Shown: positions 1 through 18,371, counted from the first letter of the stretch. The stretch: 18,532 nt of DNA from a virus (IMGVR_UViG_2541047891_000001), one strand, 5' to 3'. Numbers and translations: made by a program. The notes: generated from the letters alone by a model not told the origin.

Positions 1-542
1 CCAAAACAGCACAGCAGCACATCGCCCGGCTGCGCCGCTGACAACGGCACCTGATACAGCCCTGTGGCCTCCAGATTATCCAGATAGAGATTCTGGCCGT
101 TACACCACCAGTCATCCTCACGATGAAAGTCCGGCATCTCAATCCCCGCCAGATGATAAGCATCCCGGAACAGCGTGTAACAGTCCGTCACCCCGTGCTC
201 AAAGCGCCGCCCGGTAAGATGCGGCACACAGCGGAACTTATGAATCTCACCCCGGCAGACCAGCCACCAAGGCAAATCGCTCTGCACCTGCAGCCGCCTG
301 TCAGCCTCACTCAGCCAGGGCAGACCACCGGGGTGGCTGTGGACCAGCGCCACAATCTCACCCTGCATCTCTGCCCGCAGCCAGTCCTCCGGCGACATCC
401 GGAAATACGCCTCCGGCTCACCGGAGATATTCACGCAGGGAAAATATCTTTCCCCTTCCGGCGTTCTCACCACGAAGCCGCACGACTCCGCTGGCGCACA
501 TCGCCGGGCGTGCGCCAGAATCGCTGATTCTGTCTGTGTCAT
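1..542 (-). CDS. K: Tail assembly protein K-like (lambda gpK family), partial: C-terminus lies beyond the window start
   Basis: Minus-strand translation from ATG at 542-540 gives MTQTESAILAHARRCAPAESCGFVVRTPEGERYF...EIVALVHSHPGGLPWLSEADRR..., which contains a JAMM/MPN motif (HSHP...SEAD). It lies immediately downstream of L (4 nt gap), in lambda gene order. Not in the ORF track because it runs off the window. Confidence 0.85.
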   Translation of the reverse strand, partial: MTQTESAILAHARRCAPAESCGFVVRTPEGERYFPCVNISGEPEAYFRMSPEDWLRAEMQGEIVALVHSHPGGLPWLSEADRRLQVQSDLPWWLVCRGEIHKFRCVPHLTGRRFEHGVTDCYTLFRDAYHLAGIEMPDFHREDDWWCNGQNLYLDNLEATGLYQVPLSAAQPGDVLLCCF

Positions 543-546
543 GGGA

Positions 547-1245
547 TTACTGCGAAAGTTTGTTAATGGAAAGGAAGCCGCCAAAGTTGCCGACGTTATT
601 GCGAAACTTACAGCCGCTCAGGCATTTGCTGCATTTATCCTTCGTGATATCGGACGTCGGCTGGTCATATTCATCCGCGACAGCCGGACCATGATAACCG
701 CACTCATCACCGCGATAGGTCCAGGTGCAGGTGTTGGCCAGCATGATGCGCCCCGGAAAAACAGCACCATCCGTTTCCGTCGGTGTGGAGAGCACAAAGG
801 AGGCACTGACCGCACTCAGTTCGCTGCACTGCTCGATGCGCCAGCGGCTGATCACCTCCTGCTCCGGATCGGCGTCGCTGTTTCCGTTGACGAAGTTCAC
901 CGCATCCAGAAAACGGGCGTAAACCTTACGCCTGACCACCGTTCCGCCGACCAGACTCTGCAGGTCTTCCGCCATCCCGGTGACCATGCCGTGCAGGTTA
1001 GAGACCGTCAGTGTCGGACGGGCAGCACTGCCCTTACCGTTCAGTTCAAATCCCGTCCCCTGAATGGGGTATGCCTGATACTGCCGCCCCTGCCAGGTGA
1101 CCGGCTCACCTTTTTCGTTCTGCTCATTACAGAAAAAATAACGTTCACCACCGACCTCTGTCAGATCGATTTCCCAGAGCACCACCAGGGCTGACTGAGT
1201 AAGGCGTGTCGTCTCATGATGTGTTTCCTGTGGAATATCCTGCAT
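547..1245 (-). CDS. L: Minor tail protein L (lambda gpL family)
   Basis: 232 aa, same length as lambda L, with near-identical recalled sequence (MQDI.QET...VVLWEIDLTEVGGERYFFCNEQNEKGEPVTWQGRQYQ). ATG at 1245-1243 preceded by GGAGG with 5 nt spacing. Sits between M and K. Confidence 0.9.
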   Translation of the reverse strand: MQDIPQETHHETTRLTQSALVVLWEIDLTEVGGERYFFCNEQNEKGEPVTWQGRQYQAYPIQGTGFELNGKGSAARPTLTVSNLHGMVTGMAEDLQSLVGGTVVRRKVYARFLDAVNFVNGNSDADPEQEVISRWRIEQCSELSAVSASFVLSTPTETDGAVFPGRIMLANTCTWTYRGDECGYHGPAVADEYDQPTSDITKDKCSKCLSGCKFRNNVGNFGGFLSINKLSQ

Positions 1246-1254
1246 CAGGGCCTC

Positions 1255-1584
1255 CTATGCCACGACCTGTTCAAAATCTGCCGTTATGGTTACCCACAGC
1301 GCCCCCACGCTTGCCGACCATTTACGACAAACCACCCTGATCGGCCTCCAGTCATAAGGTGGCGTCCACTGAAATGCGCGGACGCCACCGTGCCGTTCCA
1401 GAAAGGCTTTTAAAGATGGGTGTTCACATTTACGAACACGTATCGTCACGCTGTAAGTCGACAACTGGTTATTCAGTCCCGCCGCACGACGCTGTTCATA
1501 ACCATCGCCCAGCTTCACTGTCACCACTTTCGGCTCTGATACCACATTCATATCCGGGCGCACTTTCCAGTGAAACGTCTCCAT
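1255..1584 (-). CDS. M: Minor tail protein M (lambda gpM family)
   Basis: 109 aa, same length as lambda M. Its ATG at 1584-1582 overlaps the stop of the tape measure gene (TAATG). Position between H and L. Confidence 0.85.
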   Translation of the reverse strand: METFHWKVRPDMNVVSEPKVVTVKLGDGYEQRRAAGLNNQLSTYSVTIRVRKCEHPSLKAFLERHGGVRAFQWTPPYDWRPIRVVCRKWSASVGALWVTITADFEQVVA

Positions 1585-4500
1585 TACCGATATGCTCCAC
1601 TTAACCGACCACCATCACGGGCCTGCTGTTGCATAAAGTCCGCTGCCGCTTTTTTCCCAAGGTCATAAACCACCTTCAGGGCAGCCGGACCTATCTGCCC
1701 GTTCGTGCCATCGTTATTGATCTCGATGTTGTACTGCGGGGAAAACATCGCCATACCTGAACCCCCAATATCCGCCACAACCCCCAGCTTACCGTCAGCA
1801 CCACGACGCAATGGCAGAATGGCTTCAGGTCCCGCTTCCCCCATCACACCCGCGCCTTTTGCAAAAGCAAAAAACGTCGGACGGTTAACCACCGTGCCAC
1901 TGTAACGACTCAAATCAGCAGACTGATAAATCCCCCCATTGGCATTCAGGGAAAGGCTGCTGAGATCAAATCCCAGTACACTGCCAATCCCTTTTATCGA
2001 TTTCATCATGGTTGCCTGCGCCAGGATTTTCGCCATATCTGACAGCACAGAAGAGGTGAAGGATTTGAAATTGAGTTTGCCGGTAGTGACAAAAGTTGCC
2101 AGGCCATTTCCCATGTTGCTGAAGGCTGACGAGAACACCTGTTCTGCTGTTTCTGCCGTATTATCTGCATCCACGGTAAAATCCTGAAATGCACGCAGGA
2201 CTCCGTTTTTCCAGTTACCCTGCACAACTTCAAGCTGTTGCCAGTAACGGCGATTCTCATTCAGTTGTCGGTTCAGGCTCTCCGTCAGCGCCTGCTCGGC
2301 CTTTCTGTAGTCATCCGTGTTATATGTCCCTTTCTGCTCACTATCCCGCCTCAACTGCTCCAGCTGTTGCTGGTATTTCTGGCGAAGACTCAGTTGTACC
2401 TGATATCGCTGTCGCTGCTGATCACCCATACCCACCGTGGCGATATCCAGGTCATGTTGCTGACGCTGAGCGCGCTCTTCTTCAGCCAGTTGACTGGTCA
2501 GCTGAATTGTTTTTTTCTTCAGCTCGTTGAGTGCCGTCTGTTTCTGAAGCTCCTGCTGTTTTACATCCAGCAGCGTCAGTGCCTGAATCAGTTCATCTTT
2601 ACGGGCCAGCACACTCTTTTCATCTGCCGTCAGTTTTTTCCCGTCCAGGTCGCTGATGCGCTGCTGCAGAGCCAGGAGCTGTTTATGCGCTTCTGTCATC
2701 CTTTCCGTGGCAATGCCTGCTGACTGTCTGGCAGCAGCAATCTGTCCTTCCACCTGTGCCTGTTGCTGACTGTACTGCAGCAATAACCGGGTGGCCTCAT
2801 CATTACGGGTTTCGCGTGTTTTTTTCTTACCGGATGCCAGGGCTTTCTCGTAACGTTCATTTTCACGTTGTATCGCCGCATCCCTGACAGCCTGATCGGC
2901 GTACTGCATGGCATTAATACGCGCAATTTCACGCTGATGTCGTGCAGCTTCCGTTTCATTCATCCGGTTCAGTGCAGCATTTTCAGCATTACGGCGTTTC
3001 TGTTGCTCCTGATAATTCCGCTCTGCCTGCTCTTTTGCATCCTGCAAATCCTTCTGGCGTTTTTTCTCCTGAAGATCGTTAAGACGCTGCTGATCGTATT
3101 CAACCTGAGAAGATGATGCCGTCCAGGGGAGTCTTTTCGCCCGCGACACTTTCTCCTGCAAAGTGGCAATCTGCGCATCCAGCGAATCTTCACGACCAAT
3201 ATTCATGGCCGCATCCCAGAACTGCTTCCACCAGTCAGACAAAGTTTGCAGCGTACTGCCCAGCGCATTGAGGTTATTATCAATATCCGCAGTACGCCGA
3301 CCGGTTTCCTCTGCCAGTGCAGACATGGCTATCCGTGCCGCATCACTGGACCGCCCCTGCTCTCCAAGGACGCGTATCTGCTCAAGCTGAGTGGCAGTAA
3401 GAAAATGCAGCTCATTGTCCAGAGACTTCGCGGCATTTACAGGATCATCCTTCAGCCGCTTAAACTGATTTATGGTATCGCTGACCGACTGGCCAACCGA
3501 TCGCTCCATCTGTGCGGCAGCTCTCGCCACCATACCGATATCGTTTCCACGAAATGCACCACTCCCCACCACCTGAGCCAGCGCACCGGCTGCAGCATGT
3601 TGCGTGATACCATTCCCGGAAATAGCACGACTGAGCGTCCACAGCTGCCCGGCAGTGACTCCGGCATAATGCCCCGTCAGCGACAGCTGGCGGTTAAATT
3701 CTTCCCCCTCCTTCTGACCGTCATACCAGGCTTTACCCAGACCATAGACGGCCGCGGTAATACCGCCAATAACCCCGCCCAGCATCATGCCTTTCGGTGA
3801 CATCAGTGTGTCTATCCATCCGGCACGGTTAGCCAGCGTTATCCCGGATCCCCTCAGCGCCCCTAAATTGCCGCGGGCCAGTTCACCTATCAGAACGCCT
3901 ATCTCCTGGCGGGCCGCTGCACTTTTCAGACCCAGCGAATGCGTGGCTTTTCCTGCCCGCTCCATTTTGCGGATATACACTTCTGCAGCACTGCTTACCC
4001 CCAGCTGGGCAGCCCTGGCACGAAGCAACTCAGAAGAAGAAAGATTCTGGCGGGTTGCCTGCTCTTTAAGCTGACGGATAAACGCCACTTTCTGTCGGGT
4101 AGCCTCTGCCTCAGCCTGCGTAAGAACACGGGTTTTCGCCGTAACCTCAGAAATCAGCGCCAGATAATCCTGCTGACCAATCCCGCCACTGTTTCTGGCC
4201 TGTCGGATCTGCTGCTGAATACGCTGTAATTCCTGCAGCCCCGCACTGGCCTGTTTCACACTGTCAATCTGACGATAAAACGCAGCAGCCGCTTTATCCT
4301 GAGCCTCCGCCAGAGCCATGGCCTGCGCCTGTTCCTCGCGCATTTTCTGGCTCAGTGCCTCCATGCGCTGGCGGGTTTTCTCCACCTCGCGGGCCATGCG
4401 TTCATGAGCCTGTGCGTTCTTCTCCACCGTCTGCGCATGGACGGATGCGGCTGTTGCAGCCGAAGAAGCTGCCTGCGTTGTCTGCCGGGCGGCCTGAGTC

Positions 4501-4649
4501 TGACGCTCCATAAAACGCTGCATACGGGCAGAAGACCGTTCTGCATCGCTGGCTGCACCATTCAGAAGGTTTTTGATACGGGGAATTTCATTTTTAAACT
4601 CTGCCGCATCAATCCCCAAATCAATGACCAGGTTGGCTATCTGGTCCAT
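1584..4649 (-). CDS. H: Tail tape measure protein (lambda gpH-like), about 1021 aa from the ATG start
   Basis: The C-terminus (INNDGTNGQIGPAALKVVYDLGKKAAADFMQQQARDGG) matches the lambda H C-terminus as I recall it. Long Q/E/R-rich coiled-coil middle and glycine-rich hydrophobic segments. The ORF-track start at 4679 is TTG; the first ATG is at 4649-4647, preceded by GGAGG with 8 nt spacing, and the downstream residues (DQIANLVIDLGIDAA) resemble the lambda H N-terminus. Confidence 0.85.
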   Translation of the reverse strand: MDQIANLVIDLGIDAAEFKNEIPRIKNLLNGAASDAERSSARMQRFMERQTQAARQTTQAASSAATAASVHAQTVEKNAQAHERMAREVEKTRQRMEALSQKMREEQAQAMALAEAQDKAAAAFYRQIDSVKQASAGLQELQRIQQQIRQARNSGGIGQQDYLALISEVTAKTRVLTQAEAEATRQKVAFIRQLKEQATRQNLSSSELLRARAAQLGVSSAAEVYIRKMERAGKATHSLGLKSAAARQEIGVLIGELARGNLGALRGSGITLANRAGWIDTLMSPKGMMLGGVIGGITAAVYGLGKAWYDGQKEGEEFNRQLSLTGHYAGVTAGQLWTLSRAISGNGITQHAAAGALAQVVGSGAFRGNDIGMVARAAAQMERSVGQSVSDTINQFKRLKDDPVNAAKSLDNELHFLTATQLEQIRVLGEQGRSSDAARIAMSALAEETGRRTADIDNNLNALGSTLQTLSDWWKQFWDAAMNIGREDSLDAQIATLQEKVSRAKRLPWTASSSQVEYDQQRLNDLQEKKRQKDLQDAKEQAERNYQEQQKRRNAENAALNRMNETEAARHQREIARINAMQYADQAVRDAAIQRENERYEKALASGKKKTRETRNDEATRLLLQYSQQQAQVEGQIAAARQSAGIATERMTEAHKQLLALQQRISDLDGKKLTADEKSVLARKDELIQALTLLDVKQQELQKQTALNELKKKTIQLTSQLAEEERAQRQQHDLDIATVGMGDQQRQRYQVQLSLRQKYQQQLEQLRRDSEQKGTYNTDDYRKAEQALTESLNRQLNENRRYWQQLEVVQGNWKNGVLRAFQDFTVDADNTAETAEQVFSSAFSNMGNGLATFVTTGKLNFKSFTSSVLSDMAKILAQATMMKSIKGIGSVLGFDLSSLSLNANGGIYQSADLSRYSGTVVNRPTFFAFAKGAGVMGEAGPEAILPLRRGADGKLGVVADIGGSGMAMFSPQYNIEINNDGTNGQIGPAALKVVYDLGKKAAADFMQQQARDGGRLSGAYR

Positions 4650-4950
4650 AACGCACACCTCCGGAAATACCTTCCCCAAGATGCATCAGTTCTTCGTCCG
4701 TTCGCTCCGGTATCCCGTTCTCTTCCGGTAAAAGGCTGAAATCAGCCACCGCAGCATCACTGCTGCCGGACACCATTCTCACGATCAATGCCTTCAGCGA
4801 GGCAAACTGCGCATCCATCCACACATCACTGAAGCTCTGCATCCGGAAATAATCGCCCCACTCACCAAGCTCAGTGGCCGACATTTCCGACAGCATCCGC
4901 CGCCAGTCTGCCCGCCGGAACTCCCGGGCAAGCCGCATGACAAACTGCAT
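4621..4950 (-). CDS. T: Tail assembly chaperone T-frame segment, probably expressed only as a G-T fusion by -1 frameshifting
   Basis: ORF in the -1 frame relative to G, overlapping the G 3' end. This frame is open upstream of its ATG through the slippery site at 4971-4965. Conserved G / G-T arrangement of long-tailed phages. Confidence 0.6.
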   Translation of the reverse strand: MQFVMRLAREFRRADWRRMLSEMSATELGEWGDYFRMQSFSDVWMDAQFASLKALIVRMVSGSSDAAVADFSLLPEENGIPERTDEELMHLGEGISGGVRYGPDSQPGH

Positions 4951-4958
4951 TTCCCGCG

Positions 4959-5345
4959 TCAGGACTTTTCCGGCGTCAGCGCCTCATGCTCATCATCCAC
5001 GGCATTATCAATGGCCCCCATACCGCTCAGCGACAGAACCATCTCCGCCCCCGCACCCAGGGCATCATACGACCATGTTGTAATAACGGATGCGCAAAGC
5101 GTCTCTACATCCTTAGACTGATCCGCATTCCACAGTGAGCGGGAAACCAGCCAGGCATTGATATCCATCCCCATCCGCAGAAAAGCAATCTGTCGTTCAG
5201 CCTCCGGCAGTTCTCCCTCCACGGCATCAAACTTTGCCGTTCGCTGCTGAACAAACGTCAGATATTCAATTCTCTGCAGCCCGGACAGCTCACTGAGCAC
5301 CACGGACTGTTTTTCATAATTAAACGTGTCCTGTTTCAGAAACAT
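4959..5345 (-). CDS. G: Tail assembly chaperone G (lambda gpG-like)
   Basis: Positioned between V and T-H. Starts MFLKQD..., like lambda G (MFLK...). GGAG lies 6 nt upstream of the ATG at 5345-5343; the ORF-track start at 5387 is TTG. Acidic C-terminal region (VDDEHEALTPEKS). Confidence 0.8.
   Translation of the reverse strand: MFLKQDTFNYEKQSVVLSELSGLQRIEYLTFVQQRTAKFDAVEGELPEAERQIAFLRMGMDINAWLVSRSLWNADQSKDVETLCASVITTWSYDALGAGAEMVLSLSGMGAIDNAVDDEHEALTPEKS
4965..4971 (-). other. Candidate -1 programmed ribosomal frameshift site (heptamer GGAAAAG on the minus strand) giving a G-T fusion
   Basis: G frame reads CCG GAA AAG TCC TGA; the -1 frame reads GGA AAA GTC and stays open into the T ORF. 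Analogous position to the lambda G-T slip site (GGGAAAG as I recall it). Confidence 0.5.
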
Positions 5346-5361
5346 CATGTTCTCCACCTGC

Positions 5362-5385
5362 AAAAAAGCCCCGCATAACCGGGGC
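5362..5385 (-). terminator. Intrinsic terminator-like hairpin plus T-run immediately downstream of the major tail gene
   Basis: Minus strand reads GCCCCG-GTTATG-CGGGGC followed by TTTTTT, lying between the V stop (5406) and the G ribosome-binding site. Confidence 0.5.
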
Positions 5386-5405
5386 AAATGATGAGTATCG
5401 TCCTG

Positions 5406-6149
5406 TTAACCTGCTGCGCTGACAGTCACCGCAGTCACAGCCACAAAATTCCCGTCAGCGGTCATGCCCACAATGCTGACACTGCCCTGCTTCACGCCTT
5501 TTACCGTGGCCACAAGTCCGTTCAGGGTAACCGTGGCAGTCTGTGGATCTGACGAATGCACACTGATCGCTTTGTCACTGGCTCCGTCAGGTTTTACTGT
5601 AAAGGTCAGCGTGGTGGTTGCTCCCACTTTTACACTGGCAGACGCCGGTGATACTGTCAGCCCGGTAACGCTCACGGTTTCAGTGCCTTCCTCTGCCAGA
5701 TACGGACGCCCCACACCGCTGATTTTCACAGTGCGGGTCATCACGTCTTTTGAGGCAATGGTTTTACCCAGTGAGCTCAGCCAGCCACGGAAAACATCAA
5801 CAGTGCCGTTGGGATATTTGATACGAAACGCGCAGACTTCACCGGAGTCGAACAACTGAACCAGTTTTTTCTGCCCGCTGTCACCCGGACGCCAGGCCAG
5901 CGTCGCCGAAGTATCACCAACGGATTTCTGCCCCTGGGTTGTCGTTTTCCAGTCTGCATCTTCATCATCGAGATAAGTGTCATCTTCTGCATCAGCGGTC
6001 ATTTCGCCAGGTTGCAGATCCTTCACCATCGCAAGACGCAGCCAGTCAGTGTCCGACAAAGGGTTCGCAAACGCATCGCCGTTGCCGGTATACATCCAGA
6101 ACGTCGTCCCCGCACCTTTCGTCTTTGCCAGTGGATTTGGTGTGGTCAT
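5406..6149 (-). CDS. V: Major tail protein V (lambda gpV-like) with a C-terminal Ig-like (Big_2-type) domain
   Basis: From the ATG at 6149-6147 (AGGAGG directly upstream) the protein starts MTTPNPLAKTKGAGTTFWMY..., matching the lambda V N-terminus (MPVPNP...KGAGTTLW) as I recall it. The C-terminus is T/V/S-rich beta-type repeats typical of the Ig-like domain. The ORF-track start at 6224 adds an implausible extension overlapping U. Confidence 0.85.
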   Translation of the reverse strand: MTTPNPLAKTKGAGTTFWMYTGNGDAFANPLSDTDWLRLAMVKDLQPGEMTADAEDDTYLDDEDADWKTTTQGQKSVGDTSATLAWRPGDSGQKKLVQLFDSGEVCAFRIKYPNGTVDVFRGWLSSLGKTIASKDVMTRTVKISGVGRPYLAEEGTETVSVTGLTVSPASASVKVGATTTLTFTVKPDGASDKAISVHSSDPQTATVTLNGLVATVKGVKQGSVSIVGMTADGNFVAVTAVTVSAAG

Positions 6150-6159
6150 TACCACCTCC

Positions 6160-6561
6160 TTAATTCGTGTACGTGATCTGGTACGTGATTTCCGCCATCG
6201 CCCAGGTGGCCATCTCATTATCACGTTGATAGTTAAAACCGAGTGGGTTCAGGGTGTCGATGAGTCCGGAAAGTGCCGGTACATCATTCAGGGCCGGGAA
6301 AATGGTGCTCTCCATCCACATATCCAGCTCTGAATCCGGTGCCTGTGCCCGGATGAAGACGGCAATATGCAGAACAGCCTGCCAGTCATCTTCATCCGTC
6401 ATTTTTCCGGTGTACTGAGCATCACTCAGCCACACCGCCACGGCAGGCAGTTCCTGCGCATCAATAAATGCCGGAAGCCCGTCAAAAAACGTGGCGCTGT
6501 CTCCACACTGTTCCCGAAGGCGTGCCAGTACGACCTGGCGGATTTGTGTATGTCGGTTCAT
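6160..6561 (-). CDS. U: Tail terminator protein U (lambda gpU-like)
   Basis: Contains ATFFDG...FPAVAVWL...YTG...DSELD.WMES, similar to lambda U as I recall it. I chose the ATG at 6561-6559 because it overlaps the Z stop (ATGA coupling) and aligns with the lambda U start. The alternative start is 6573. Confidence 0.8.
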   Translation of the reverse strand: MNRHTQIRQVVLARLREQCGDSATFFDGLPAFIDAQELPAVAVWLSDAQYTGKMTDEDDWQAVLHIAVFIRAQAPDSELDMWMESTIFPALNDVPALSGLIDTLNPLGFNYQRDNEMATWAMAEITYQITYTN

Positions 6562-7148
6562 CGGGTCAGCCATAACCTCAGTTGTTGTTTCAGTGCATAC
6601 CCCAGCTGTTTCGGCATTTCCGCAGCAATGATGTGGTCGCGGGCATCTTCAAATGCCTGTGTCAGCGGTCCGGACAGCGGGATTTTCACTACCTCCACAG
6701 GAAGACGATTTTTTCTTGGCCTGCCCTGATGGTCATGCCCTGTTGCAAAACGCGCTTCAGGAAGACGCCTCAGAACATGCCAGCGGCCATTCGCCAGTTG
6801 CTGAACAAATGCCCCCCGGAAAAAGTATTTTCCCACTCTCAGTCCTTCACCAGCACGCCGCCGTGTTGTGTTCAGTTTGATGGCGGGCAGATTGCCCCGG
6901 TTAACGCGGATCCTGGCCGTCATTTTTCCTGACGGACTGGCTTTAAACACCCGGACACGCTGACGTACCAGTTTCAGGGGGATCCCTTTCACCTGGTTAT
7001 CTCCCGCAACGGTATTCCCGGCAACCTGCCGGGTGGCAACCGAGACCGCTTTCTGTGCCACACGGTTTATCGCCCATGCGCTGGCCTGTGGCACCATACG
7101 GGTATCAAGGCTGTTCAGATTGCGGATGGCATTCTCAAGCCCCTTCAT
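6558..7148 (-). CDS. Tail completion protein (gpZ-like by position and size)
   Basis: 196 aa ORF between the FII-like gene and U. ATG at 7148-7146 with AGAGGTG upstream. The assignment is by synteny and size (lambda Z is about 192 aa), not by a sequence match I can verify. Confidence 0.6.
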   Translation of the reverse strand: MKGLENAIRNLNSLDTRMVPQASAWAINRVAQKAVSVATRQVAGNTVAGDNQVKGIPLKLVRQRVRVFKASPSGKMTARIRVNRGNLPAIKLNTTRRRAGEGLRVGKYFFRGAFVQQLANGRWHVLRRLPEARFATGHDHQGRPRKNRLPVEVVKIPLSGPLTQAFEDARDHIIAAEMPKQLGYALKQQLRLWLTR

Positions 7149-7159
7149 CCCACACCTCT

Positions 7160-7435
7160 TTACTCAATAAAGATCATTGGCTTACCGTTAAAGCGTTCAT
7201 GCCGTGTGACCGTCCATTGTTGTCCGTCATAAACAACGCGATCCCCGCGCCGTGGGCGGTATCCCGAAGAAAACACCACCAGAGAGACCGCAGGTCCGGA
7301 CAGAGCATTCAGCTCTGCCAGTGTTTCTCCCGGGATCACAGTCATATCGACATCATTAATCGAGGCTGTCTTTCCCATCTTTCTGACCGTGATCGCATCC
7401 ATACGCGCTGCCAGCCGGGAAAAGGGATCAGACAT
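7160..7435 (-). CDS. Head-tail joining / head completion protein (FII-like by position)
   Basis: 91 aa ORF starting at ATG 7435-7433, between the head genes and Z. Small beta-rich protein ending RVVYDGQQWTVTRHERFNGKPMIFIE. Function assigned by synteny. Confidence 0.5.
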   Translation of the reverse strand: MSDPFSRLAARMDAITVRKMGKTASINDVDMTVIPGETLAELNALSGPAVSLVVFSSGYRPRRGDRVVYDGQQWTVTRHERFNGKPMIFIE

Positions 7436-7751
7436 TGAGTTTTACCGGCACTTCTTCTGCACTGGTTCCGGCATCTGCCCAGACAACCCCGACCAGCGGA
7501 TCAGAGCCGCTGTTAGTCAGCTGAACTTTTCCGGACTTCAGATAAACCTTCTTACCCGTTTTCATGTCATCCGTTTTCAGCTTAGGCAGCATAAACACAC
7601 CTTCGGTCATGCCGTCGCCTGTTTCACCCTGTGGAATATCGGTCAGCGCCACCGCAAAAACATCACCCACCTGCACCAGCTCTCCGCTGCTGATGGCTGC
7701 ACTGGCAACAATCGCCACCGTTTTTCCTTCTTCTACAAAATTCTTTGCCAT
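7428..7751 (-). CDS. Small head-associated structural protein (DUF2190-like; possible capsid decoration/cement protein)
   Basis: 107 aa from the ATG at 7751-7749 (GGAG 8 nt upstream). Motifs GVFMLPK and a C-terminal VGVVWADAG...VPVKLNV resemble the DUF2190 family as I recall it. Lies directly downstream of the capsid gene. Confidence 0.45.
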   Translation of the reverse strand: MAKNFVEEGKTVAIVASAAISSGELVQVGDVFAVALTDIPQGETGDGMTEGVFMLPKLKTDDMKTGKKVYLKSGKVQLTNSGSDPLVGVVWADAGTSAEEVPVKLNV

Positions 7752-7793
7752 AACTGTCTCCGCACAGCCCCGTTCAGGGGCTGATTTCAGGTA

Positions 7794-7813
7794 CAAAAAA
7801 AGCCCTTACGGGC
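7794..7813 (-). terminator. Weak intrinsic terminator-like element just downstream of the capsid gene
   Basis: Minus strand reads GCCC-GTAA-GGGC followed by TTTTTTT, 25 nt after the capsid stop. A second 7-bp hairpin (CAGCCCC-TGAAC-GGGGCTG) sits at 7765-7783. Confidence 0.4.
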
Positions 7814-7837
7814 CATCAGAGTTGTTGTCTGCGACGT

Positions 7838-9796
7838 TTACGCCGTACATTTCACCAGACCGCGGTGATCAACTGGCGCGACACCGGCGTCAATACGCAC
7901 TTTCGTTGTCACGCCATCCACACTGAAGCCCTCCATCTGATCAATATATGGCGTATCCACACCGTTGAGATAAGCCACTTCAATCGTATCGGAGCCTTTT
8001 GACGCAGCCAGGTAGAAGGTGGTCTGGCTGTTATCATCAAGACGAGGCTCTGCAATAACGGTCGCAAAATCTTTCACCGGGTTAATAATACCGGCGTTAA
8101 TGTCAGCCCCCTTGACACTTGAGGAGCGAATGACCTGGTTAGCAACAGACTCCATCGCCGTCGGTACCAGTACGAACGCAGGACGAATATTCAGATGACG
8201 CTCCCCCTCTTTCTGAACGCGCATCAACTGGCGGGCTTTATCCAGCGATGCCACGTCCATTGCAGCGCTCTCCAGTACGTTTGCATGTTTCGCTTTATCG
8301 AACAGACTTACATTATCTGTGGAGATTTTCGGGTTAGACGTCAGAATGGCATAAACCAGATCGGCAATAGTGGATTTCGCCGCACGGCCCAGTTTCATCG
8401 GGACATCGGTCAGCATATTCAGATCATCATTGATAATGGCCTGACGGGTGATACTGAACAGCTCGCCATAGGTCGCCAGTGCAATAGTGGCCTGTTTATC
8501 TCCGGTGGTGACGTATTTATATTCCGCCCCTTCACGCACCTGACGCAGAGCACTGAAGCCCCCCATACCCACACGATGGGCAATTTTAAAATCAGACAAC
8601 TGACCTTTCCGCGTCCATTGTTCATAGGTTTCAGGAGCATCTTCCCAGCCCTGCAGAATGGCTTTGTTCGCAACATCCAGCAGAATATTACCGAAGTCAG
8701 ACGTACTGTGGGTGAACGCCGCACCGACCATCTGCATCGGGTTATAACCGGAAACCCCAATACCCCGTTCAGTCAGTGACATACGGGCATATTCACGCAG
8801 GGTCATCCCGTTGTAGACATTATCACGTTCGGTTTTTTCAAATCCGGCACGCGCCATCAGCGCCTGGCGGATCCCGTCCCCCACAAAATTACCGTTACCA
8901 GCATAAATATGAGCCGGTGTATTTTTATTGGATGGCGTGGACTCGCGCCCCATCTCGTTCAACAGCTTTTCGCGGGCCTGCTCCAGCGAACACTCAGGAT
9001 CGGCAAGACACTGAGCCTGCAGCGTCTGATAACGCCCGCCAAACATGGCAAACAGATCATTAATACCGTTTACACGCGCTTTTTGCTCTGCCAGTACCTG
9101 CGCACGGATACTGTTTTCATCCACCACGGGTGCTGCTGCCTGCACTGGCGTCCGGGAGGCTGCAGGTTCATCATCCTGTACGCGTGGAGCACTGTTGCGT
9201 GGCGGAGTAATCATGTTTCGAATGGATTCCGGCATCTTTTTAAATTCCTCTGTACGTTTTGACTGAATACATGCCATTGCCTTAACGGCTGGCGTCACCT
9301 GATCAGCAAATCCATGTGCCAGACATTCGGCACCGGACATCCAGGTCTCATCCGCCAGCATGGCAGCAATTTCATCGGTGGTTTTCCCGGTTTTCTGTGC
9401 ATAAGCGGGTAACAGAACCGCCTCAACCTTATCGAGCAGGTCGGCATAGGTGCGCATGTCCTCCGCATCACCGCCCGTAAAGCCAAATGGTTTATGAATC
9501 ATCATGAAGGTGTTTTCCGGCATAATGACCGGGTTTCCCACCATCGCAATGACCGACGCCATTGACGCCGCCACACCGTCGACATAAACGGTAATGGACG
9601 CACCATGTGTTTTCAGCGCATTAAAAATGGCGATGCCTTCAAAGACATCGCCACCCGGTGAATTGATATGGAGATTAATGTGGGTGATATCGCCCAGTGC
9701 ATTCAGATCACTGATAAACTGCTTCGCTGTAACACCCCAGAAACCAATCTCGTCATAAATATAAATATCCGCGTCACTCTGGTGACCAGCCTGCAT
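7838..9796 (-). CDS. Prohead protease / scaffold-like / major capsid fusion protein (ClpP-like N-terminal domain, HK97-fold capsid C-terminal domain)
   Basis: N-terminal region has ClpP-type motifs (GDITHINLHINSPGGDVFEGIAIFNAL, VDGVAASMASVIAMVG, MMIHKPFG). The middle is a coiled, A/Q-rich segment. The C-terminal ~350 aa are capsid-like. Start chosen at ATG 9796-9794, 13 nt after the portal stop; the ORF-track start at 10057 would overlap the portal gene by about 250 nt. Confidence 0.75.
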   Translation of the reverse strand: MQAGHQSDADIYIYDEIGFWGVTAKQFISDLNALGDITHINLHINSPGGDVFEGIAIFNALKTHGASITVYVDGVAASMASVIAMVGNPVIMPENTFMMIHKPFGFTGGDAEDMRTYADLLDKVEAVLLPAYAQKTGKTTDEIAAMLADETWMSGAECLAHGFADQVTPAVKAMACIQSKRTEEFKKMPESIRNMITPPRNSAPRVQDDEPAASRTPVQAAAPVVDENSIRAQVLAEQKARVNGINDLFAMFGGRYQTLQAQCLADPECSLEQAREKLLNEMGRESTPSNKNTPAHIYAGNGNFVGDGIRQALMARAGFEKTERDNVYNGMTLREYARMSLTERGIGVSGYNPMQMVGAAFTHSTSDFGNILLDVANKAILQGWEDAPETYEQWTRKGQLSDFKIAHRVGMGGFSALRQVREGAEYKYVTTGDKQATIALATYGELFSITRQAIINDDLNMLTDVPMKLGRAAKSTIADLVYAILTSNPKISTDNVSLFDKAKHANVLESAAMDVASLDKARQLMRVQKEGERHLNIRPAFVLVPTAMESVANQVIRSSSVKGADINAGIINPVKDFATVIAEPRLDDNSQTTFYLAASKGSDTIEVAYLNGVDTPYIDQMEGFSVDGVTTKVRIDAGVAPVDHRGLVKCTA

Positions 9797-9809
9797 CCTG
9801 AACCAGGAA

Positions 9810-11318
9810 TTATTCTTCGGACTGGTCGTCGGTGTGCTGCGGCTCCTGTCGTTTCGTTGCGGCACTGCTGCCTCCTTTATCACTGGCCGGATCGGTATCA
9901 AATACCAGATCCAGCTTGCGGTTTTCATCAATTTCTGCCTTGCGCCGACGTTTGACATCATCCGGATTACGACCACCTGCACGTACCCAGTCTGATTCTG
10001 TCGCCGCTCCACCACGAATCTGAATTTTCCAGGCCTCAGCCTCCTTAACAGGGTCAATCCACGGCATCACCGGTCCGGAATACACCGCGGTATACAGTGA
10101 AGAACGGTCAAGATCGCGGGGTAGCCTGATAACACCGGATGCCACAGCCTGTTTCAGCCAGGCACGATACATCGGGCGGGTGACGGCACCAATAAACCAG
10201 TCCTGCAGGATCAGGTAGCCATCAGTGGATTCAACCAGCTCCTGACGCTGGGCGCTGTAAGTGCCGTTATAGTTGCGCGCTGTACTGGAAAAACTCAGAC
10301 GACTGCCCGCCGCCACGGCACGCAACTGACCATTACGAAAAGTTTCAAGGTTAGGATTGGGGCGATCCGACTTCACCATTCCGATTTCTTCGCCGGGTTT
10401 CAGATCGTCGTAAATAATGCCTGGCTGAATGGTAAGCTCGCGTTCATTCTCCTTGCTGTCATTACCATCCGTTTCATAGCTCTGTCCGTCGCCTTTGCGG
10501 ATGTACATCCCCAGAGCAGCAGCGATCCTTGCTGCAGTCAGCTCAGAATCTTCATATTCTTTCAGGGCACTGAGGCGGATCAGCACACCGGACAATAAAG
10601 ACGTCCCGCGCATCTGGTGCAGACGGCGAACAAATTTAAGATGCAGCATTCGCTCTGCATCCACTTCTTTGGTTTCCATCTGCCGTCCGGATACAGGACG
10701 ACTTTTATACACCAGATATTTTTCGGGACGCCCCCAGTCATCAACAAACACGCCCTGATTCAGCCTGTTGCTCTCATCACTGGTCATGGGAATAAAGTCT
10801 GGCTCGAGTGCCTCCAGCCAGAAATGAACACCGGCAGAAGGCGTCAGGCTGTTTATGCGCCCGGAAACCATCTGGGCAAACACCTCACCATCGCGCAGCC
10901 AGGTACGCAGCATCAGACGTTCCAGCATCGGACGGGTAAACTGCCCGGTAACTTCCGGACTGACAGACCATTCACTCCATCGGGTGCGTATCTCCGCTGC
11001 CAGATCACGGGCAATGGCCCCATTGCGTAATACCGGATGTGGCTCGACAATAATCCCGTTTTTCCCCACCACCCGTTCTTCCAGCTTGTCAAATACACCA
11101 ATGACCAGATCGTGGTTGTTATCAAGGTAACGGGCCTGCTCACGTAACGACACGGCCCCGTAGAGGCTTAACTGGTCGGCAGTTCGGTTTTCCCGCCGGG
11201 CTTTGTGTGTCCGCGTCGTTTTTACGGCCTCATAAGCCTGGATCACCGCCCGGGAACGCAGCCTTGCCGCTTTCCATCCTGGTGAAAAAACGCCAATCAC
11301 ATCATCAAGAATTGCCAT
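9810..11318 (-). CDS. Portal protein
   Basis: About 502 aa, lying between the W-like gene and the protease-capsid gene. Start ATG at 11318-11316 overlaps the W-like stop (TGATG coupling). Acidic C-terminus, typical of portals. The family is not lambda gpB by my recollection, so the call is by position, size and composition. Confidence 0.75.
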   Translation of the reverse strand: MAILDDVIGVFSPGWKAARLRSRAVIQAYEAVKTTRTHKARRENRTADQLSLYGAVSLREQARYLDNNHDLVIGVFDKLEERVVGKNGIIVEPHPVLRNGAIARDLAAEIRTRWSEWSVSPEVTGQFTRPMLERLMLRTWLRDGEVFAQMVSGRINSLTPSAGVHFWLEALEPDFIPMTSDESNRLNQGVFVDDWGRPEKYLVYKSRPVSGRQMETKEVDAERMLHLKFVRRLHQMRGTSLLSGVLIRLSALKEYEDSELTAARIAAALGMYIRKGDGQSYETDGNDSKENERELTIQPGIIYDDLKPGEEIGMVKSDRPNPNLETFRNGQLRAVAAGSRLSFSSTARNYNGTYSAQRQELVESTDGYLILQDWFIGAVTRPMYRAWLKQAVASGVIRLPRDLDRSSLYTAVYSGPVMPWIDPVKEAEAWKIQIRGGAATESDWVRAGGRNPDDVKRRRKAEIDENRKLDLVFDTDPASDKGGSSAATKRQEPQHTDDQSEE

Positions 11319-11530
11319 CAGAACCTCGCCAGCCGGTACCCGGGATGCCCCCGTCGTCGTGTAATCAGAGCCGCAAGGCGGCGCTCCCACTCCTGCCGTC
11401 CCTGCCGGATCTCAGATAAGTTTTCCATGGTCATCTGCTGACCATTAAAGGTGACGGATTTTCCGTCCAGCACCGCCATTTCAGCTTCCGTATAACGCTG
11501 AATCATGGCTTCGATATCATTCTGGTTCAT
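11318..11530 (-). CDS. gpW-like head-tail joining protein
   Basis: 70 aa from the ATG at 11530-11528 (GGAGG 6 nt upstream), overlapping the terminase stop (ATGA). The C-terminal RRRGHPGY resembles the lambda W C-terminus (RRRGPAGF) as I recall it. Position between terminase and portal. Confidence 0.65.
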   Translation of the reverse strand: MNQNDIEAMIQRYTEAEMAVLDGKSVTFNGQQMTMENLSEIRQGRQEWERRLAALITRRRGHPGYRLARF

Positions 11531-13246
11531 AACCATCCTCCGGAAGTCAGCCAGGGGTTAACATCGTCAGTTACTGTTTTCTTCCGTTTTTGTTTTTTAA
11601 CAGGCGTGGATACCGGTTCCGGTGAGGGTGACGGTTCGGTACTGTCCGGGACACACTCCAGCCAGGTTTCCCGGCTCGCCCACTCCGGTGCATCCGGCCA
11701 GCGGATCTTTTCGTATCCATGCAGAATGACCAGAGCCTCGGCATACACCATCAGGTCAAAAGCTTCGTTGGCACCGCGACCCGGCTTACTCCATTTCCCG
11801 TCACTGCTCCGCTCTTCATACGTCAGTTCGTCGTAAAACCAGCTCCCCAGCCAGTCAGGGAAATGCACATAGCCGGGACCTGGCGAGTCACGCCATAACG
11901 CGTTATTCACCCGGTCTTTCAGTGCATCCGTCTGAAGAAGCCAGAGCGGCACATCACCTGCGGCCTGCGCCCGTCGGCCCGTTCGTCCGGTGTTATCAGG
12001 GAATGTACGGGTGATCAGTTTTGCGCGCCGGATGCTGTCGCCCTTAAACAGGTAAATACGTTTACCAAGGCCATCACGACGGCAACGACGCCAGAATTTA
12101 TAGGCATTATCAGTGACCCCGTCTTCACCGCCGGAGTCCACCGCCATTGCCATCAGTCGCATTTGTTGAGAAGGATCGGAGGCCAGCGGCCAGCTTTTAT
12201 GAAAAACATCCGTCAGCAGGACATCCCAGTCTTCCGGATAGCTGGCCGGATCAATTCGCTGGCTCTCCCCGTCGCAGTCACTGCGCAATGACTGCGTGAT
12301 ATTGTAACGATCAATAATCCAGCGTTCGCCACGACTGCCATAGCCCGTTACCTGAACCACAAAACGGCGATGACGTCCCGCCTGCACATCCACTGTCGCC
12401 ACAAGGAAATTAACGCCATCCGGCACACTGCAGGAAGGAACTGGCTCTGCCCGCTGCTCAAGCAGTTCACTTTTTCGTTGCTCCATGCTGGCACGAGGAA
12501 GATAAGGCAATCCCCAGTCGGTGTTGATAACCGCCCTGAGTGTTTCTTCGCTTCCTGTCGCTTCATACTCCTGTTCTGCAGTCAGTAATTTGTAAACCAG
12601 TTGCGCCCAGGTCTGATACGCAGCAGCTGGCCCTTCCATCCAGAAACTGGCGATACGGGAGCGGCGCGGTTCACCGGAAACGTTGCCGTTACGATCAATG
12701 ACCTGACCTTCACGCAACCAGACTCCTGCACTATTGAGCTCACGCTTTTTCTCCGCAGTGATAATGCCGCTGCAGTGCGGGCAAAGTAGATACGCCGCCT
12801 CACTGGCTTTAAAGGGATCCGGTTCATTACGGTAGCCGGTCATGGCATCCATAGCTGGCTGAAAATATTCACCGCAGTGCGGACATGGCCAGTACCAGCG
12901 GCGGCGGTCACCACGATTGTAAAGGGAAAGAATACCAGTCGTCGGTGGAGCTTCATGAGGCGACTTACGTCGCCATTTGCTGTCGCAGATGTCACGTCCC
13001 GGCGAGCTCTCCACCAGAGTCATCCCGGCGGACATAAATGTGGTGGTACGTTTTGAGGCCAGGGAGAAACCATCACCCTCGCTGTCGATATTCTCCGGAA
13101 AACGGTCGTAATCGGTTAAGGCGACAAACCGGTAATCCGACGATGACATAATGTTGACCGAGGGCCAACCAATTTTAAGGAACGAGCCATCCCTGAACGT
13201 CTTATCATGGACATTATTGTCGTTACGACGTGGACTCATTCTTTTC
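11527..13246 (-). pseudogene. Terminase large subunit (gpA-like), truncated at the 5' end by the IS66-family junction; N-terminal ATPase Walker A region missing
   Basis: The 570 aa ORF aligns with the lambda gpA region from the Walker-B-like segment (VALTDYDRF) through the CPHCG zinc motif and the nuclease domain. About 130-170 N-terminal residues are absent. The reading frame runs directly into the IS terminus at 13247. Confidence 0.8.
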
Positions 13247-15003
13247 GTAAGCGGCTCGTCAGAACCGTATTGATATTTACTGAGAGCTCAGATCAACTTT
13301 CCAGGGCAACAGATCGCGTACCCGGTTTGCCGGCCAGTCCTGGATATGTTCAATGACGTAGCGCAGCCATTTTTCTGGCTCCACATTGTTCAGACGGCAT
13401 GTGCCGATCAGCGAGTACAACACCGCCGCATGTTCGCCACCGCTGTCGGAACCTGCGAACAGCCAGTTTTTCCGGCCCACGGCCACACCCCGTAAGGCGT
13501 TCTCTGCGATGTTGTTGTCGATTTCCACCCAGCCATTACTGCAGTACACGTTCAGGGCCTCCCACTGTTTCAGCAGGTATGCGAACGCTTTTGCCGTATC
13601 TGAGTGACGCGACAGTGTTTTCATCTGTTGCTGTATCCAGTCATACAGTGACTGCATCAGTGGCGCGGCTCTGGCTTTTCTTGCCGCCAGACGCTGTTCT
13701 GCTGAACAGCCCCGGACCTCTGCCTCGATGGCATACAGTTCACCGATACGCTGCAGGGCTTCCGTGGTGATGTCGGTGGGCGCTCTTGCATGCACATCGT
13801 GGATTTTTCTCCGGGCATGAGCCATACACGCGGCTTCCGTTATTCTGCCGGATTCGTATAACGCCCGGTAACCACCGTAAGCATCGGCCTGAAGCACACC
13901 GCTGTAACCGGCCAGGTGATTTTGTGGATGGATACCTTTCCGGTCCGGACTGTACGCGAACCAGACCGCCGGGGGCATCTGTGAACCGGCGTTGCGGTCA
14001 TCACGGACGTAGACCCACAGCCGGGCTGTCCGGGTTTTACCGCTGCCCGGCTCCTGGACCGGGACGGGGATATCATCGGCATGGACTTTACCGGGCATCA
14101 GCACATACTGGCGCAGGACGTCATACAGCGGCTCCAGCAGTTCAGCAACAGCACCTGTCCAGCGCCCCAGTGTGGCACGGCTCAGCTCCACTCCCTGACG
14201 ACGGTATATTTCTGACTGGCGGTATAACGGCAGATGGTCTGCATATTTCCCGGTGACAACATGGGCCAGAAGCCCCGCTCCGGCATAACTGCGTGCAATG
14301 GGTTTTGAAGGTACTGGTGCCTGCACGATATGGTCGCACCGGCAACAGGCCAGTTTCGGACGTTGTATTTCGATAACCTTAAAGGCGCTGCTGATAAGCT
14401 CCAGTTGCTCTGACACATCACATCCCAGAGAACTGAGTTCACCACCACAGGCAGGACAGCATTCCTCTTCCGGCCGGATAACCCGGGTTTCACGGGGAAG
14501 TGAGGCCGGTAACGGTTTACGGGCTGAAGACTGGCGCAGGGCGGATGGCAGTACCGGGTCATATTGCTCACCCAGCGTTTCCGCCATTTCTTCCTGAAGT
14601 GCGCTGATTCGCTCCTGTGCTTCCTGTATCTGCCGTTCGGTTTTTGCACGAAGTTTTTCTGAGCTTTTACCGAACTGCATACGTTGCAGTTTCGCAACCA
14701 GCGCCTTCAGCCGGTTGATTTCGGAAGCATAAGCCGCCACCCGCTGTGAGAGCAGGCGGTTGTATTCAGCCATCTGGCGGATGGTGTCCTGTTGCGTCTG
14801 CAACAGTGCCCGCAGGCGGGCGTTCTCATGAGCAAGTGAGGTGTCCATATCCTCACTTTACAACGGGTTATATGCGGATTCCAGCGCGTTCCGTTCGTTT
14901 CGGGTGCTTCCAGTTGATACCTTCAAGAAGCATGGATAACTGAGCCGGAGTAAGGTGCACCTTGCCGTTACGGGTGACTGGCCAGACGAAGCGGCCCCGC
15001 TCC
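13247..15003 (-). mobile_element. Truncated IS66-family insertion sequence (3' end of tnpB, complete tnpC and one terminal repeat; tnpA, most of tnpB and the other terminus are absent)
   Basis: The terminus at 13247 reads GTAAGCGGCTCGTC inward on the plus strand, consistent with IS66-family ends as I recall them. tnpC is at 13277-14848. The tnpB C-terminal motif ([32 protein letters not shown]) is encoded at about 14868-15000. The upstream boundary (about 15003) is inferred from where cold-shock homology stops. Confidence 0.75.
13277..14848 (-). CDS. tnpC: IS66-family transposase TnpC
   Basis: 523 aa with an N-terminal leucine-zipper-like coiled coil, a zinc-finger segment (CCPACGG...CCRCDH), DDE-region motifs and a CMAHARRK motif, all characteristic of IS66 TnpC. 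ATG at 14848-14846. Confidence 0.85.
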
Positions 15004-15167
15004 ATAGAGAAGGTAACCTTTTGACCTTCAAATAAGGTTCGATAATTATCATTCTGAATCGCAGAAAAATGCACAAACACATCTTTACTACCATCAACAG
15101 GAGAAATAAAGCCGAAACCTTTATCAGCGTTAAACCATTTTACTAAACCAGTCATTTTATTTGACAT
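14868..15167 (-). pseudogene. Chimeric ORF: N-terminal ~54 aa of a CspB-like cold-shock protein fused in frame to the C-terminal ~45 aa of IS66 TnpB
   Basis: [54 protein letters not shown] is a cold-shock domain with RNP motifs. It is followed by [45 protein letters not shown], a TnpB C-terminus. ATG at 15167-15165 with AAGGA upstream. Confidence 0.7.
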
Positions 15168-15465
15168 TCTACATTCCTTAACTTGAGCCTTTCGGCATAA
15201 ATGGTTTGCATAACAGAAACGACTTCGTACTTAATTGGAGAGACTCAAAGAAGGAATAAGTGAATAACACCTGAAATGAGAACTGCTTTAGTAAACTACT
15301 TCGTATATCGTCTGTTCTTCAAACCGACGCAGTCATTAACTCATAGTTGAACATATGAAGCAATGTTTATTTTAGACATCCAGCCACCTTCAACCCTATC
15401 AAAAAAGTAGTTTTCTCCAGGAACGTGTGTATGGTGCACCAGGTTATCAGTATTAAGGAGTTTTT

Positions 15466-15680
15466 CTGTCCCCTAAAATGACAGGAATTGTCAAAAACTT
15501 TGACTACAAAAGCAGCAAAGGTCTTATATTCCCATCCGATGGCGTATCGATGCCCAGCTTCACGTTTCAGCTCTCAATCTTCGAGATGCAGAAGAAATTA
15601 CCACAGGATTACGCGTGGAATTTTGCCGGATAAATGGTTCGCGTGGACCTTCAACTGCCAATGTTTATCCCGGGATGAGA
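15466..15680 (+). pseudogene. cspF-like cold-shock gene remnant, frameshifted and probably with a mutated start codon
   Basis: One frame gives [22 protein letters not shown] (ATG at 15478). The next frame, from about 15543, gives [42 protein letters not shown]. Together these are the two halves of a single cold-shock domain. AAGGAG at 15455-15460 is spaced for a start at 15466, which is CTG here. Confidence 0.55.
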
Positions 15681-15711
15681 TTCAATATCTCTATTGCCCC
15701 ATTTAAAGCAC

Positions 15712-15740
15712 AAAAACCCGCTTATCAGCGGGTTTTCTAC
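15712..15740. terminator. Bidirectional intrinsic terminator
   Basis: Plus strand reads AAAAACCCGCT-TATC-AGCGGGTTTT with an A-run on one side and a T-run on the other. It lies after the cspF-like gene (plus strand) and about 45-60 nt downstream of the candidate late promoter (minus strand). Confidence 0.5.
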
Positions 15741-15782
15741 TTTTTTCTAAACGTCGGATACACAAAGCCCATCGTTGAGAAA

Positions 15783-15811
15783 ATCTTATCCATGTTTTTT
15801 GAAAAATGCAA
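15783..15811 (-). promoter_or_regulatory. Candidate sigma-70 promoter downstream of Q (possible PR'-like late promoter)
   Basis: On the minus strand: TTGCAT (-35; plus-strand 15806-15811), a 17 nt spacer, then TAAGAT (-10; plus-strand 15783-15788). It is followed by the terminator at 15712-15740, giving a PR'-tR'-like layout just 3' of the antiterminator gene. Confidence 0.3.
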
Positions 15812-15842
15812 ACATCATGTCGCCATCTTCAGCAAAAATCAT

Positions 15843-16595
15843 TTATCTCGTCACCTTCCTCAATTGCGCTTCCGCGTATGCTTCTTCCTGCCAGCACTTT
15901 GTTACCAGTTTATCAATGACGTCCGCATACCCCTTATACCACTGATAATCGGTCAGGTCTGGTACCAGCTTCTGGACATGACGTCGTGCCAGCGTGGTTG
16001 GTAAACGACTAAACCGGTTTCCATTACAACGCCCACAAATCTTATATACCGGTACGCCATGAAACCGGGTTCTTTTTTCATCCAGAACAATCCCTTTACC
16101 CTTACACCCTCTGCACGCTGTGCTGACTTCGCCCTTACCATGGCAATGCTGACATAGTTCCTTCACCCATTCTTCCTTGATTACAGATTCCCCGCGTCTG
16201 TAGTGTTTCACCACTTCGCGCAATACATTATAAAATCCCGTACCTGAACAATGCTCACAGCGAGCCTTACTTGCCGCAGACCTGGAGTAATCAGCAAAGG
16301 CAAAACTCACGAGGTAAGGAATAATCTGTAACCGGATTTCTTCACTCAATTTGTTCAATGTCGGGTTATCCAGTGCCATCGCGTAATTTAGCAGGCCTTC
16401 AATCGCAAACTGAGGGTCCTGAACACCAACTTTTGCCAGAAATAAGGCCAACCCAAGTGGTGCTTTCGACTGCACCATCCCCTGCGCTGCCATTACATCC
16501 GTAATTGTTAAACAACCGGTGCCTGTCGCTGGAGCGTCATCGCTCAATTTTGGAGATTTTGGGGAGTAATATTTTGGTAAGGCTTCAAGGTTCAT
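15843..16595 (-). CDS. Late antiterminator Q (phage 82 / Qin quuQ-type)
   Basis: About 250 aa from the ATG at 16595-16593 (GGAG 8 nt upstream). The N-terminus [20 protein letters not shown] and multiple CxxC zinc motifs ([30 protein letters not shown]) match the QuuQ/YdfT-type Q protein of E. coli Qin-like prophages as I recall it. Confidence 0.85.
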
Positions 16596-16608
16596 GCTCG
16601 TTCTCCAC

Positions 16609-17938: not shown

Positions 17939-18004
17939 CGGTTTTCTCCGGTGGCACGGTGTTACTCAGCGGGAGTTCAGCCCCGCGCAAGATTGTAGAT
18001 GAGT

Positions 18005-18256: not shown

Positions 18257-18334
18257 CAGAATCCTTCCGGATAATTAACTCTCCCCTTTAAGGGACCATC
18301 CCTCTTATCCCTGCGCGCTACTTAAGTATTTTTG

Positions 18335-18364
18335 ATTCTATTCCGGCACCGTCCAGAACTTCAA
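18335..18364 (-). promoter_or_regulatory. Candidate promoter for rem
   Basis: On the minus strand: TTGAAG (-35), an 18 nt spacer, then TAGAAT (-10), about 80 nt upstream of the rem ATG. Confidence 0.25.
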
Positions 18365-18371
18365 ACGCGTT

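Follow-up and report, generated by a model that had tools for sequence, protein, structure and literature searches.

A Qin/Tritos-type lambdoid prophage of Escherichia coli probably disabled by a single lesion associated with the insertion sequence ISCro1

Tritos (OV696610.1), prophage 3 of the adherent-invasive Escherichia coli (AIEC) strain LF82, is a viable phage: it was obtained as a plaque isolate and its virions were imaged by electron microscopy (PMC9928086). In prophage Sp4 of E. coli O157:H7 Sakai, the nu1 gene is disrupted by an insertion sequence (IS), yet the prophage is still packaged, which was ascribed to the action of the Sp14 terminase at a nearly identical cos site (PMC2669165). 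We compared these systems with a stretch of DNA of 18,532 bp recorded as viral (IMGVR_UViG_2541047891_000001), which we call the window and which is the terminal part of scaffold KE701562.1 in the draft short-read E. coli assembly GCA_000460155.1. The element in the window is a Qin/Tritos-type lambdoid prophage of E. coli. Very probably it was disabled by one IS-associated lesion, in which an IS insertion into the large terminase gene (terL) and a deletion led to the loss of the lysis genes, the cos site and the small terminase gene (terS).

Positions 1-13246 of the window correspond to Tritos 14358-1113 at 98.99% identity, and the region of Q and ydfU matches Tritos at 95.7%. The two elements also agree in gene order, Q type, the cspB leader, the GpA-type terminase, the lambda-family portal, the protease-capsid fusion and the lambda-like tail genes. 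Tritos, however, keeps cos, terS, a full-length terL and an S-ydfR-R-Rz cassette, whereas in the window a fragment of ISCro1 replaces Tritos positions 1-1112 and 41136-46360. The resemblance to Sp4 is of another kind, in that both prophages are lambdoid, have a packaging enzyme inactivated by an IS and have kept most structural genes. Sp4 retains cos, whereas the window prophage has lost cos, terS, the N terminus of TerL and the lysis cassette, so the rescue described for Sp4 would not be expected here.

A third likeness, to the Qin prophage of E. coli K-12, is apparent from the RefSeq gene names used in relatives: Q (quuQ/ydfT), ydfU, rem, hokD, cspF, cspB, cspI, gnsB and the ynf set. We take K-12 Qin to carry the same content of Q, ydfU, rem, hokD, csp, gnsB and ynf genes. 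It presumably also keeps the lysis genes essQ, rrrQ and rzpQ and has lost the head genes and most tail genes, which is the opposite of the pattern in the window.

The phage genes of the window lie on the minus strand, except for cspF. Read from right to left, they are rem, an unnamed gene, ydfU (DUF968) and Q, followed by a hairpin, cspF, the cspB leader with the 5′ part of its coding region, an IS66-family fragment, a terminase open reading frame (ORF) of 570 aa and an uninterrupted series of head and tail genes (Table 1). We compared this arrangement with the chromosome NZ_OZ040973.1 (L001), strain 08-00022 (L002), strain Z1323HEC0355 (L011), Tritos and phage cdtI (AB285204.1), and by megablast with 5,426 complete E. 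coli genomes, a set that was also used for the junction searches below. The arrangement occurs in none of the 5,426 genomes, while its flanking parts are present in many.

The parental layout is given by four relatives, L001, L011, Tritos and cdtI, which share a common order between Q and the head genes. Q is followed by cspF, cspB, ynfU, the holin (essD/S), ydfR, the endolysin or lysozyme (rrrQ/R) and the spanin (rzpQ), and then by cspI, ynfQ, ynfR, ynfN, gnsB, a DUF1398 gene, ybcW, cos, a DUF1441 gene (the small terminase) and a TerL of 699 aa. The window can be aligned with L001 as far as L001 10947 (window 13246) and then again from L001 17269 (window 15000). The phage DNA absent between these points amounts to about 6.32 kb, and the ISCro1 fragment is found in its place. 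The loss comprises the final 14 cspB codons, ynfU, the genes for holin, ydfR, endolysin and spanin, cspI, ynfQ, ynfR, ynfN, gnsB, the DUF1398 gene, ybcW, the cos site, the small terminase gene and the first 126 codons of terL, which encode the Walker A motif. PHROGs profiles classify DUF1441 as a terminase small subunit (phrog_141, E=7.9e-65) and identify the three lost lysis genes of an intact relative as holin, endolysin and Rz-like spanin.

An original prediction, made from the sequence of the window alone, had proposed that the prophage is defective in packaging and lysis. The comparison with intact relatives, among them the plaque-forming Tritos (PMC9928086), bears this out: the lysis-cos-terS module sits where the window has the IS fragment, and a segment of about 6.3 kb that extends from the lysis genes through cos and terS to the 5′ part of terL has been replaced. 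Q, the IS fragment and an N-terminally truncated terminase were likewise correctly located, as judged by Pfam and by the relatives. The prediction had found no ORF for a holin, endolysin or small terminase in positions 13247-15843, and this proved to be true of the entire window. We ran tblastn with the 14 proteins of the missing segment of an intact relative, and with a second type of lysis cassette, against the entire window in all six frames. With both cassette types, no holin, endolysin, spanin or small terminase was found anywhere in the window. The only missing-segment proteins with significant matches were csp paralogues; Q and the truncated terminase were matched as well. The 6.6 kb beyond the right end of the window, on scaffold KE701563.1, holds only early genes (hok, QueH, replication genes, cro, cI, dicB and an exonuclease gene), with no lysis or small terminase gene among them. 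The left flank in relatives contains only K, I, J and tail-fibre genes.

The lambda cohesive-end sequence GGGCGGCGACCT has no match in the window or in L001 at up to two mismatches, because Tritos-type phages have a different cos. The records of Tritos and cdtI start at the same nucleotide, with GGGCGGGAGCGTCGCGG at positions 1-24 of each (L015 1-24, L013 1-24). This sequence resembles the left end of lambda, GGGCGGCGACCTCGCGG. Given that the two record termini coincide and that the sequence resembles lambda, GGGCGGGAGCGTCGCGG is probably the cos of Tritos-type phages. The start point corresponds to L001 12059/12060 (motif at L001 12036-12059), which is 196 nt upstream of terS and inside the missing segment. 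No copy of the motif occurs in the window, even with three mismatches allowed.

The terminase is truncated from the 5′ side. The ORF of 570 aa begins at an internal ATG, Met130 of the intact protein, and 570 aa is not the length of the family: relatives at 98.8-99.95% DNA identity encode a TerL of 699 aa, as expected from the proposal that the N-terminal ATPase region is missing. The Pfam GpA_ATPase profile matches the shorter protein only from profile position 97 of 247, compared with positions 2-247 in an intact 699-aa relative. According to Pfam and PHROG profiles together, about 96-130 N-terminal profile positions are absent. The Walker A sequence GPARTGKT occupies residues 72-79 of intact TerL, within the lost part. 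The GpA_nuclease profile, by contrast, is complete (1-294 of 294, E=1.5e-86). Among six relatives that share an identical tape-measure protein, five have the 699-aa TerL preceded by DUF1441.

We also observed a locus with the identical tape-measure protein (L019 1-3120, GCA_028478975.1) that has a DUF1441 protein of 161 aa and an ORF of 93 aa but no called terL, and the capsid gene of another phage before them. It looks like an independent case of defective packaging.

Table 1. Positions of features in the window, with the basis for each
Feature	Position	Strand	Basis or details
Head and tail gene block, all frames open	3..11530	-	Gene calls and Pfam domains; canonical lambda-type order
Truncated large terminase, GpA type	11527..13246 (570-aa ORF 11527-13239)	-	First 380 nt (126 codons) missing
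Junction A, exact ISCro1 right terminus (GTAAGCG...) adjoining terL nucleotide 381	13246..13247		Alignment with L001 and L002
ISCro1 (IS66 family) fragment, right-hand 1,757 of 2,699 bp	13247..15003	-	99.1% identical to the ISCro1 copy of L002
tnpC, IS66-family DDE transposase, 523 aa, full length	13277..14848	-	Pfam DDE_Tnp_IS66 (E=1.8e-104) plus LZ, zf and C-terminal domains
In-frame fusion ORF of 99 aa, CspB residues 1-57 and ISCro1 TnpB residues 73-115	14868..15167	-	Pfam CSD (residues 5-58) and TnpB_IS66 (residues 55-90)
cspA-type thermoregulator, cspB 5′ leader and start of coding region, intact	14951..15328	-	Rfam RF01766, 136.7 bits (gathering score 78), E=1.4e-35
Junction B, interior of ISCro1 tnpB joined to cspB codon 57	15000..15004 (about 15003/15004)		Base-by-base alignment with L002 (IS) and L001 (cspB)
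cspF pseudogene, frameshift near codons 23-26	15466..15668	+	tblastn of CspF: two segments in different frames
GC-rich hairpin, terminator-like, 10-pair stem	15713..15736		Terminator scan; between Q and the end of cspF
Q late-gene antiterminator (ydfT/quuQ type), 250 aa, intact	15843..16595	-	Pfam Antiterm PF03589, E=9.5e-55

The IS fragment has only its right terminus (GTAAGCG at 13247). The left end has been deleted, and with it its inverted repeat, the tnpA gene and tnpB codons 1-72, so that only TnpB residues 73-115 remain. The intact ISCro1 copy in L002 has both ends and an 8-bp target duplication, AACTGGTC. As it has one end only and no tnpA, the fragment itself would be immobile. Relative to the common ISCro1 it differs at 16 of 1,757 positions, ten of which are clustered in window positions 13361-13559, and its closest match in the 5,426 complete genomes is 99.2% identical. 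Within tnpC, nine changes are synonymous and five are non-synonymous. TnpC differs from the common ISCro1 TnpC by five amino acids, and its exact sequence was found on this contig only. The mostly synonymous cluster at 13361-13559 suggests a mosaic or recombinant variant of the IS rather than random decay.

The two ends of the fragment differ in character. Because the terminus of the IS is exact at junction A, this junction is attributed to the transposase. Junction B lies within tnpB and has an imperfect microhomology of 3-5 nt (CTCCA in tnpB and CTCTA in cspB), and is therefore ascribed to an ordinary illegitimate deletion. Neither junction occurs in the 5,426 complete genomes. The single 100% match, in strain 98232, is split into two pieces that are separated by 555 bp and stems from another insertion, one within terS.

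These observations suggest the following history. ISCro1 (2,699 bp) would have inserted into terL behind nucleotide 380, oriented like the late operon. Later, an illegitimate deletion of about 7.3 kb, via a microhomology of a few bases, would have joined tnpB codon 72/73 to cspB codon 57, with the loss of both IS sequence (about 0.94 kb) and phage sequence (about 6.32 kb). We also considered a classical IS-mediated adjacent deletion, i.e., intramolecular transposition, which is expected to leave the IS whole. The IS is incomplete, and junction B is located inside tnpB with microhomology; hence, at least one step was an ordinary illegitimate deletion.

A different path could lead to the same product: the IS could have inserted elsewhere in the module, with a deletion anchored at the IS end that extended into terL, plus an internal deletion. 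A specific version would start from an insertion shared with other strains. Strains 08-00022, 98232 and L5_E1779_ETEC have ISCro1 in the cos-terS-terL region of the same prophage family and, as in the window, in late-operon orientation. Unlike the window's copy, theirs are complete (2,699 bp) with both flanks present, and the lysis genes are kept. The insertion sites also differ, being between cos and terS in 08-00022 (with the 8-bp duplication noted above), inside terS in 98232 and near the 3′ end of terL in L5_E1779_ETEC. Descent of the lesion from the 08-00022 insertion, via an end-anchored deletion, is not favoured, as the IS in the window is a distinct sequence variant. The three other copies differ from one another at 0-2 positions, compared with 16 of 1,757 for the window fragment, and the window's IS therefore appears to be a separate acquisition of a variant element.

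In unrelated strains, complete ISCro1 copies are located at L002 8930-11628, from about L005 9503 and from about L006 7304. Three ISCro1 sites in one module might mean that the module is a favoured target or a place where insertions are tolerated.

Several points weigh against an insertion into terL followed by a deletion. The left end of the IS and any target-site duplication are gone, so the order of the two events is deduced rather than directly visible. Both junctions are private to this one assembly, and no second assembly confirms them. Moreover, the assembly is a short-read draft, and the assembler had difficulty at the IS, where there is a break at 14792 and a redundant overlap of 3.7 kb.

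The last of these points raises the idea that the missing segment was lost only in assembly. In this scenario, which we regard as unlikely, the prophage still has its lysis-cos-terS segment, lying between an ISCro1 fragment that follows cspB and a complete ISCro1 in terL; the assembler would have bridged the two IS copies and skipped what lies between them, and the true deletion would be smaller than it seems or absent. The right end of the window is the end of its scaffold, and the next scaffold, KE701563.1 (2.5 Mb), starts at window position 14792, inside the IS fragment. Window positions 14792-18532 (3,741 bp) are repeated at 100% identity at the start of KE701563.1, which runs on into the early region of the prophage. 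KE701562.1 and KE701563.1 are therefore neighbouring scaffolds that the assembler left unmerged at the IS. A draft scaffold with such a duplication would fit a collapse, as would the position of junction A exactly at a repeat boundary, where mis-joins occur, and the fact that neither junction is in any other assembly searched. However, the window has no N gaps, and the IS fragment, with its 16 differences and a TnpC unique to the contig, is distinguishable from canonical copies. Junction B is inside the IS, is unique and is present in both overlapping scaffolds, and is thus a real deletion endpoint in any case. Even if a collapse occurred, terL would be interrupted by an IS and cspB would be truncated.

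Alternatively, an inversion or translocation, driven by recombination or transposition of ISCro1 copies, might have carried the segment with the lysis genes, cos, terS and the 5′ part of terL to another chromosomal site; the genes would then persist in the genome without being linked to the prophage. Large rearrangements of enterobacterial genomes are mediated by IS copies, and in Citrobacter rodentium an expansion of ISCro1 is accompanied by large-scale rearrangements (PMC3072379). The portion of the genome examined here consists of 18.5 kb plus 6.6 kb, which leaves room for a displaced segment. On the other hand, homologous recombination between IS copies would leave whole copies, whereas junction B is an internal breakpoint with microhomology, as is typical of deletions. 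We consider this rearrangement quite improbable, and the prophage would be equally defective if it had happened.

An insertion into terL with a subsequent deletion also accounts for an unusual ORF at junction B. The deletion cut cspB at codon 57/58 and joined it in frame to tnpB, and sequence comparison with intact CspB and TnpB confirms the composition of the resulting fusion given by the Pfam domains. The exact protein of 99 aa is found in this assembly only. The tnpC gene follows at its native spacing of 19 nt, and may now be driven by the cspB promoter. Given that the fusion retains the complete cspB promoter region and thermoregulator leader, and that cspB, a moron, ranks among the prophage genes with the strongest expression in a lysogen of Tritos (PMC9928086), the locus could conceivably be a source of TnpC, either constitutive or responsive to cold or Q, that acts in trans on other ISCro1 copies. 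A further idea is that selection maintains the nearly perfect head and tail genes as a recombination reservoir for incoming lambdoid phages. We view these two proposals as very doubtful.

Finally, it is hardly credible that the 570-aa terminase is a natural short form in a functional prophage that packages and lyses by other means, even though its frame is open, starts with ATG and encodes a complete nuclease domain: homology to the 699-aa gene extends upstream of this ATG as far as the IS terminus, both profiles lack the ATPase N terminus with Walker A, five of the six relatives with an identical tape-measure protein have the longer TerL after DUF1441, and the window has no lysis gene, terS or cos.

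The structural genes form a canonical block that comprises a head-tail connector (W-like), portal, protease-capsid fusion, decoration-like protein, head completion protein, Z, U, V, G, T, tape measure, M, L and K. Gene K runs off the start of the window, with its first 180 codons open. Window positions 2300-13246 are 99.95% identical to L001, with five substitutions in 10,947 nt and no gaps. The claim that the genes from W to K are intact thus stands for all frames, although K can be judged on its first 180 codons only. The 99.95% identity to an intact relative in the head and tail region indicates that the lesion is recent. The intact look of the structural genes then follows from the recent date, and selection need not be invoked. 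The term "cryptic remnant", which had been applied to the element, is right in that the prophage is defective, but slightly overstated, since its late genes are otherwise essentially identical to those of intact phages.

On the other side of the lesion the closest relative is different. Window positions 15000-18532 are 99.83% identical to L011. The late region matches L011 at only 96%, and the early region with Q matches L001 at only 94.7%. The prophage is a mosaic, with its boundary within or beside the deleted segment. Phage cdtI has the terS-terL end in common.

Q is intact, with all 250 residues identical to those of ydfT in L011 and four differences from L001. The hairpin downstream of Q is bordered by an A run and a T run, and is terminator-like on both strands; it could be a Q-responsive terminator. 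A consensus scan of the minus strand from Q to cspB found no late promoter. A candidate noticed by eye was dropped, as it matched 7 of 12 consensus positions.

Two degraded csp genes had been predicted between Q and the IS. This holds for cspF, which is a frameshifted pseudogene, but cspB has not decayed; it was cleanly cut by the deletion. The same cspF is annotated as frameshifted in L011, whose prophage is otherwise complete. Because the frameshift is common to that prophage, it is older than the lesion and unrelated to it, and we reject a general decay of csp genes. In Tritos, no cspF is annotated. The gene appears to be dispensable. A stretch of 258 bp between cspF and Q of L001, which holds an annotated ORF of 29 aa, is missing both in the window (at 15667/15668) and in L011.

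The analysis of gene content allows some predictions about what the element can still do. Late transcription after induction, and perhaps formation of proheads or empty heads and of tails, is conceivable, because Q and the head and tail genes remain, along with the early region on the overlapping scaffold. However, we would expect no phage-programmed lysis by the element, and its DNA should not be recognised, cut or translocated. The terminase of a helper phage would not be expected to rescue packaging, because the deletion took cos as well.

Lambdoid prophages that were disrupted by an IS or have undergone deletions are amply documented (PMC2669165), and this case matters little beyond annotation. 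For annotation, the terminase ORF should be marked as a pseudogene and the prophage labelled as defective in lysis and packaging. The locus offers an example, resolved to the base, of a lambdoid prophage inactivated by an IS insertion and then, as proposed here, a deletion. We predict that, with or without a helper phage, the element is unable to spread in virions, but that it can donate its head and tail genes by recombination. It also illustrates that structural genes that look intact do not imply a functional phage.

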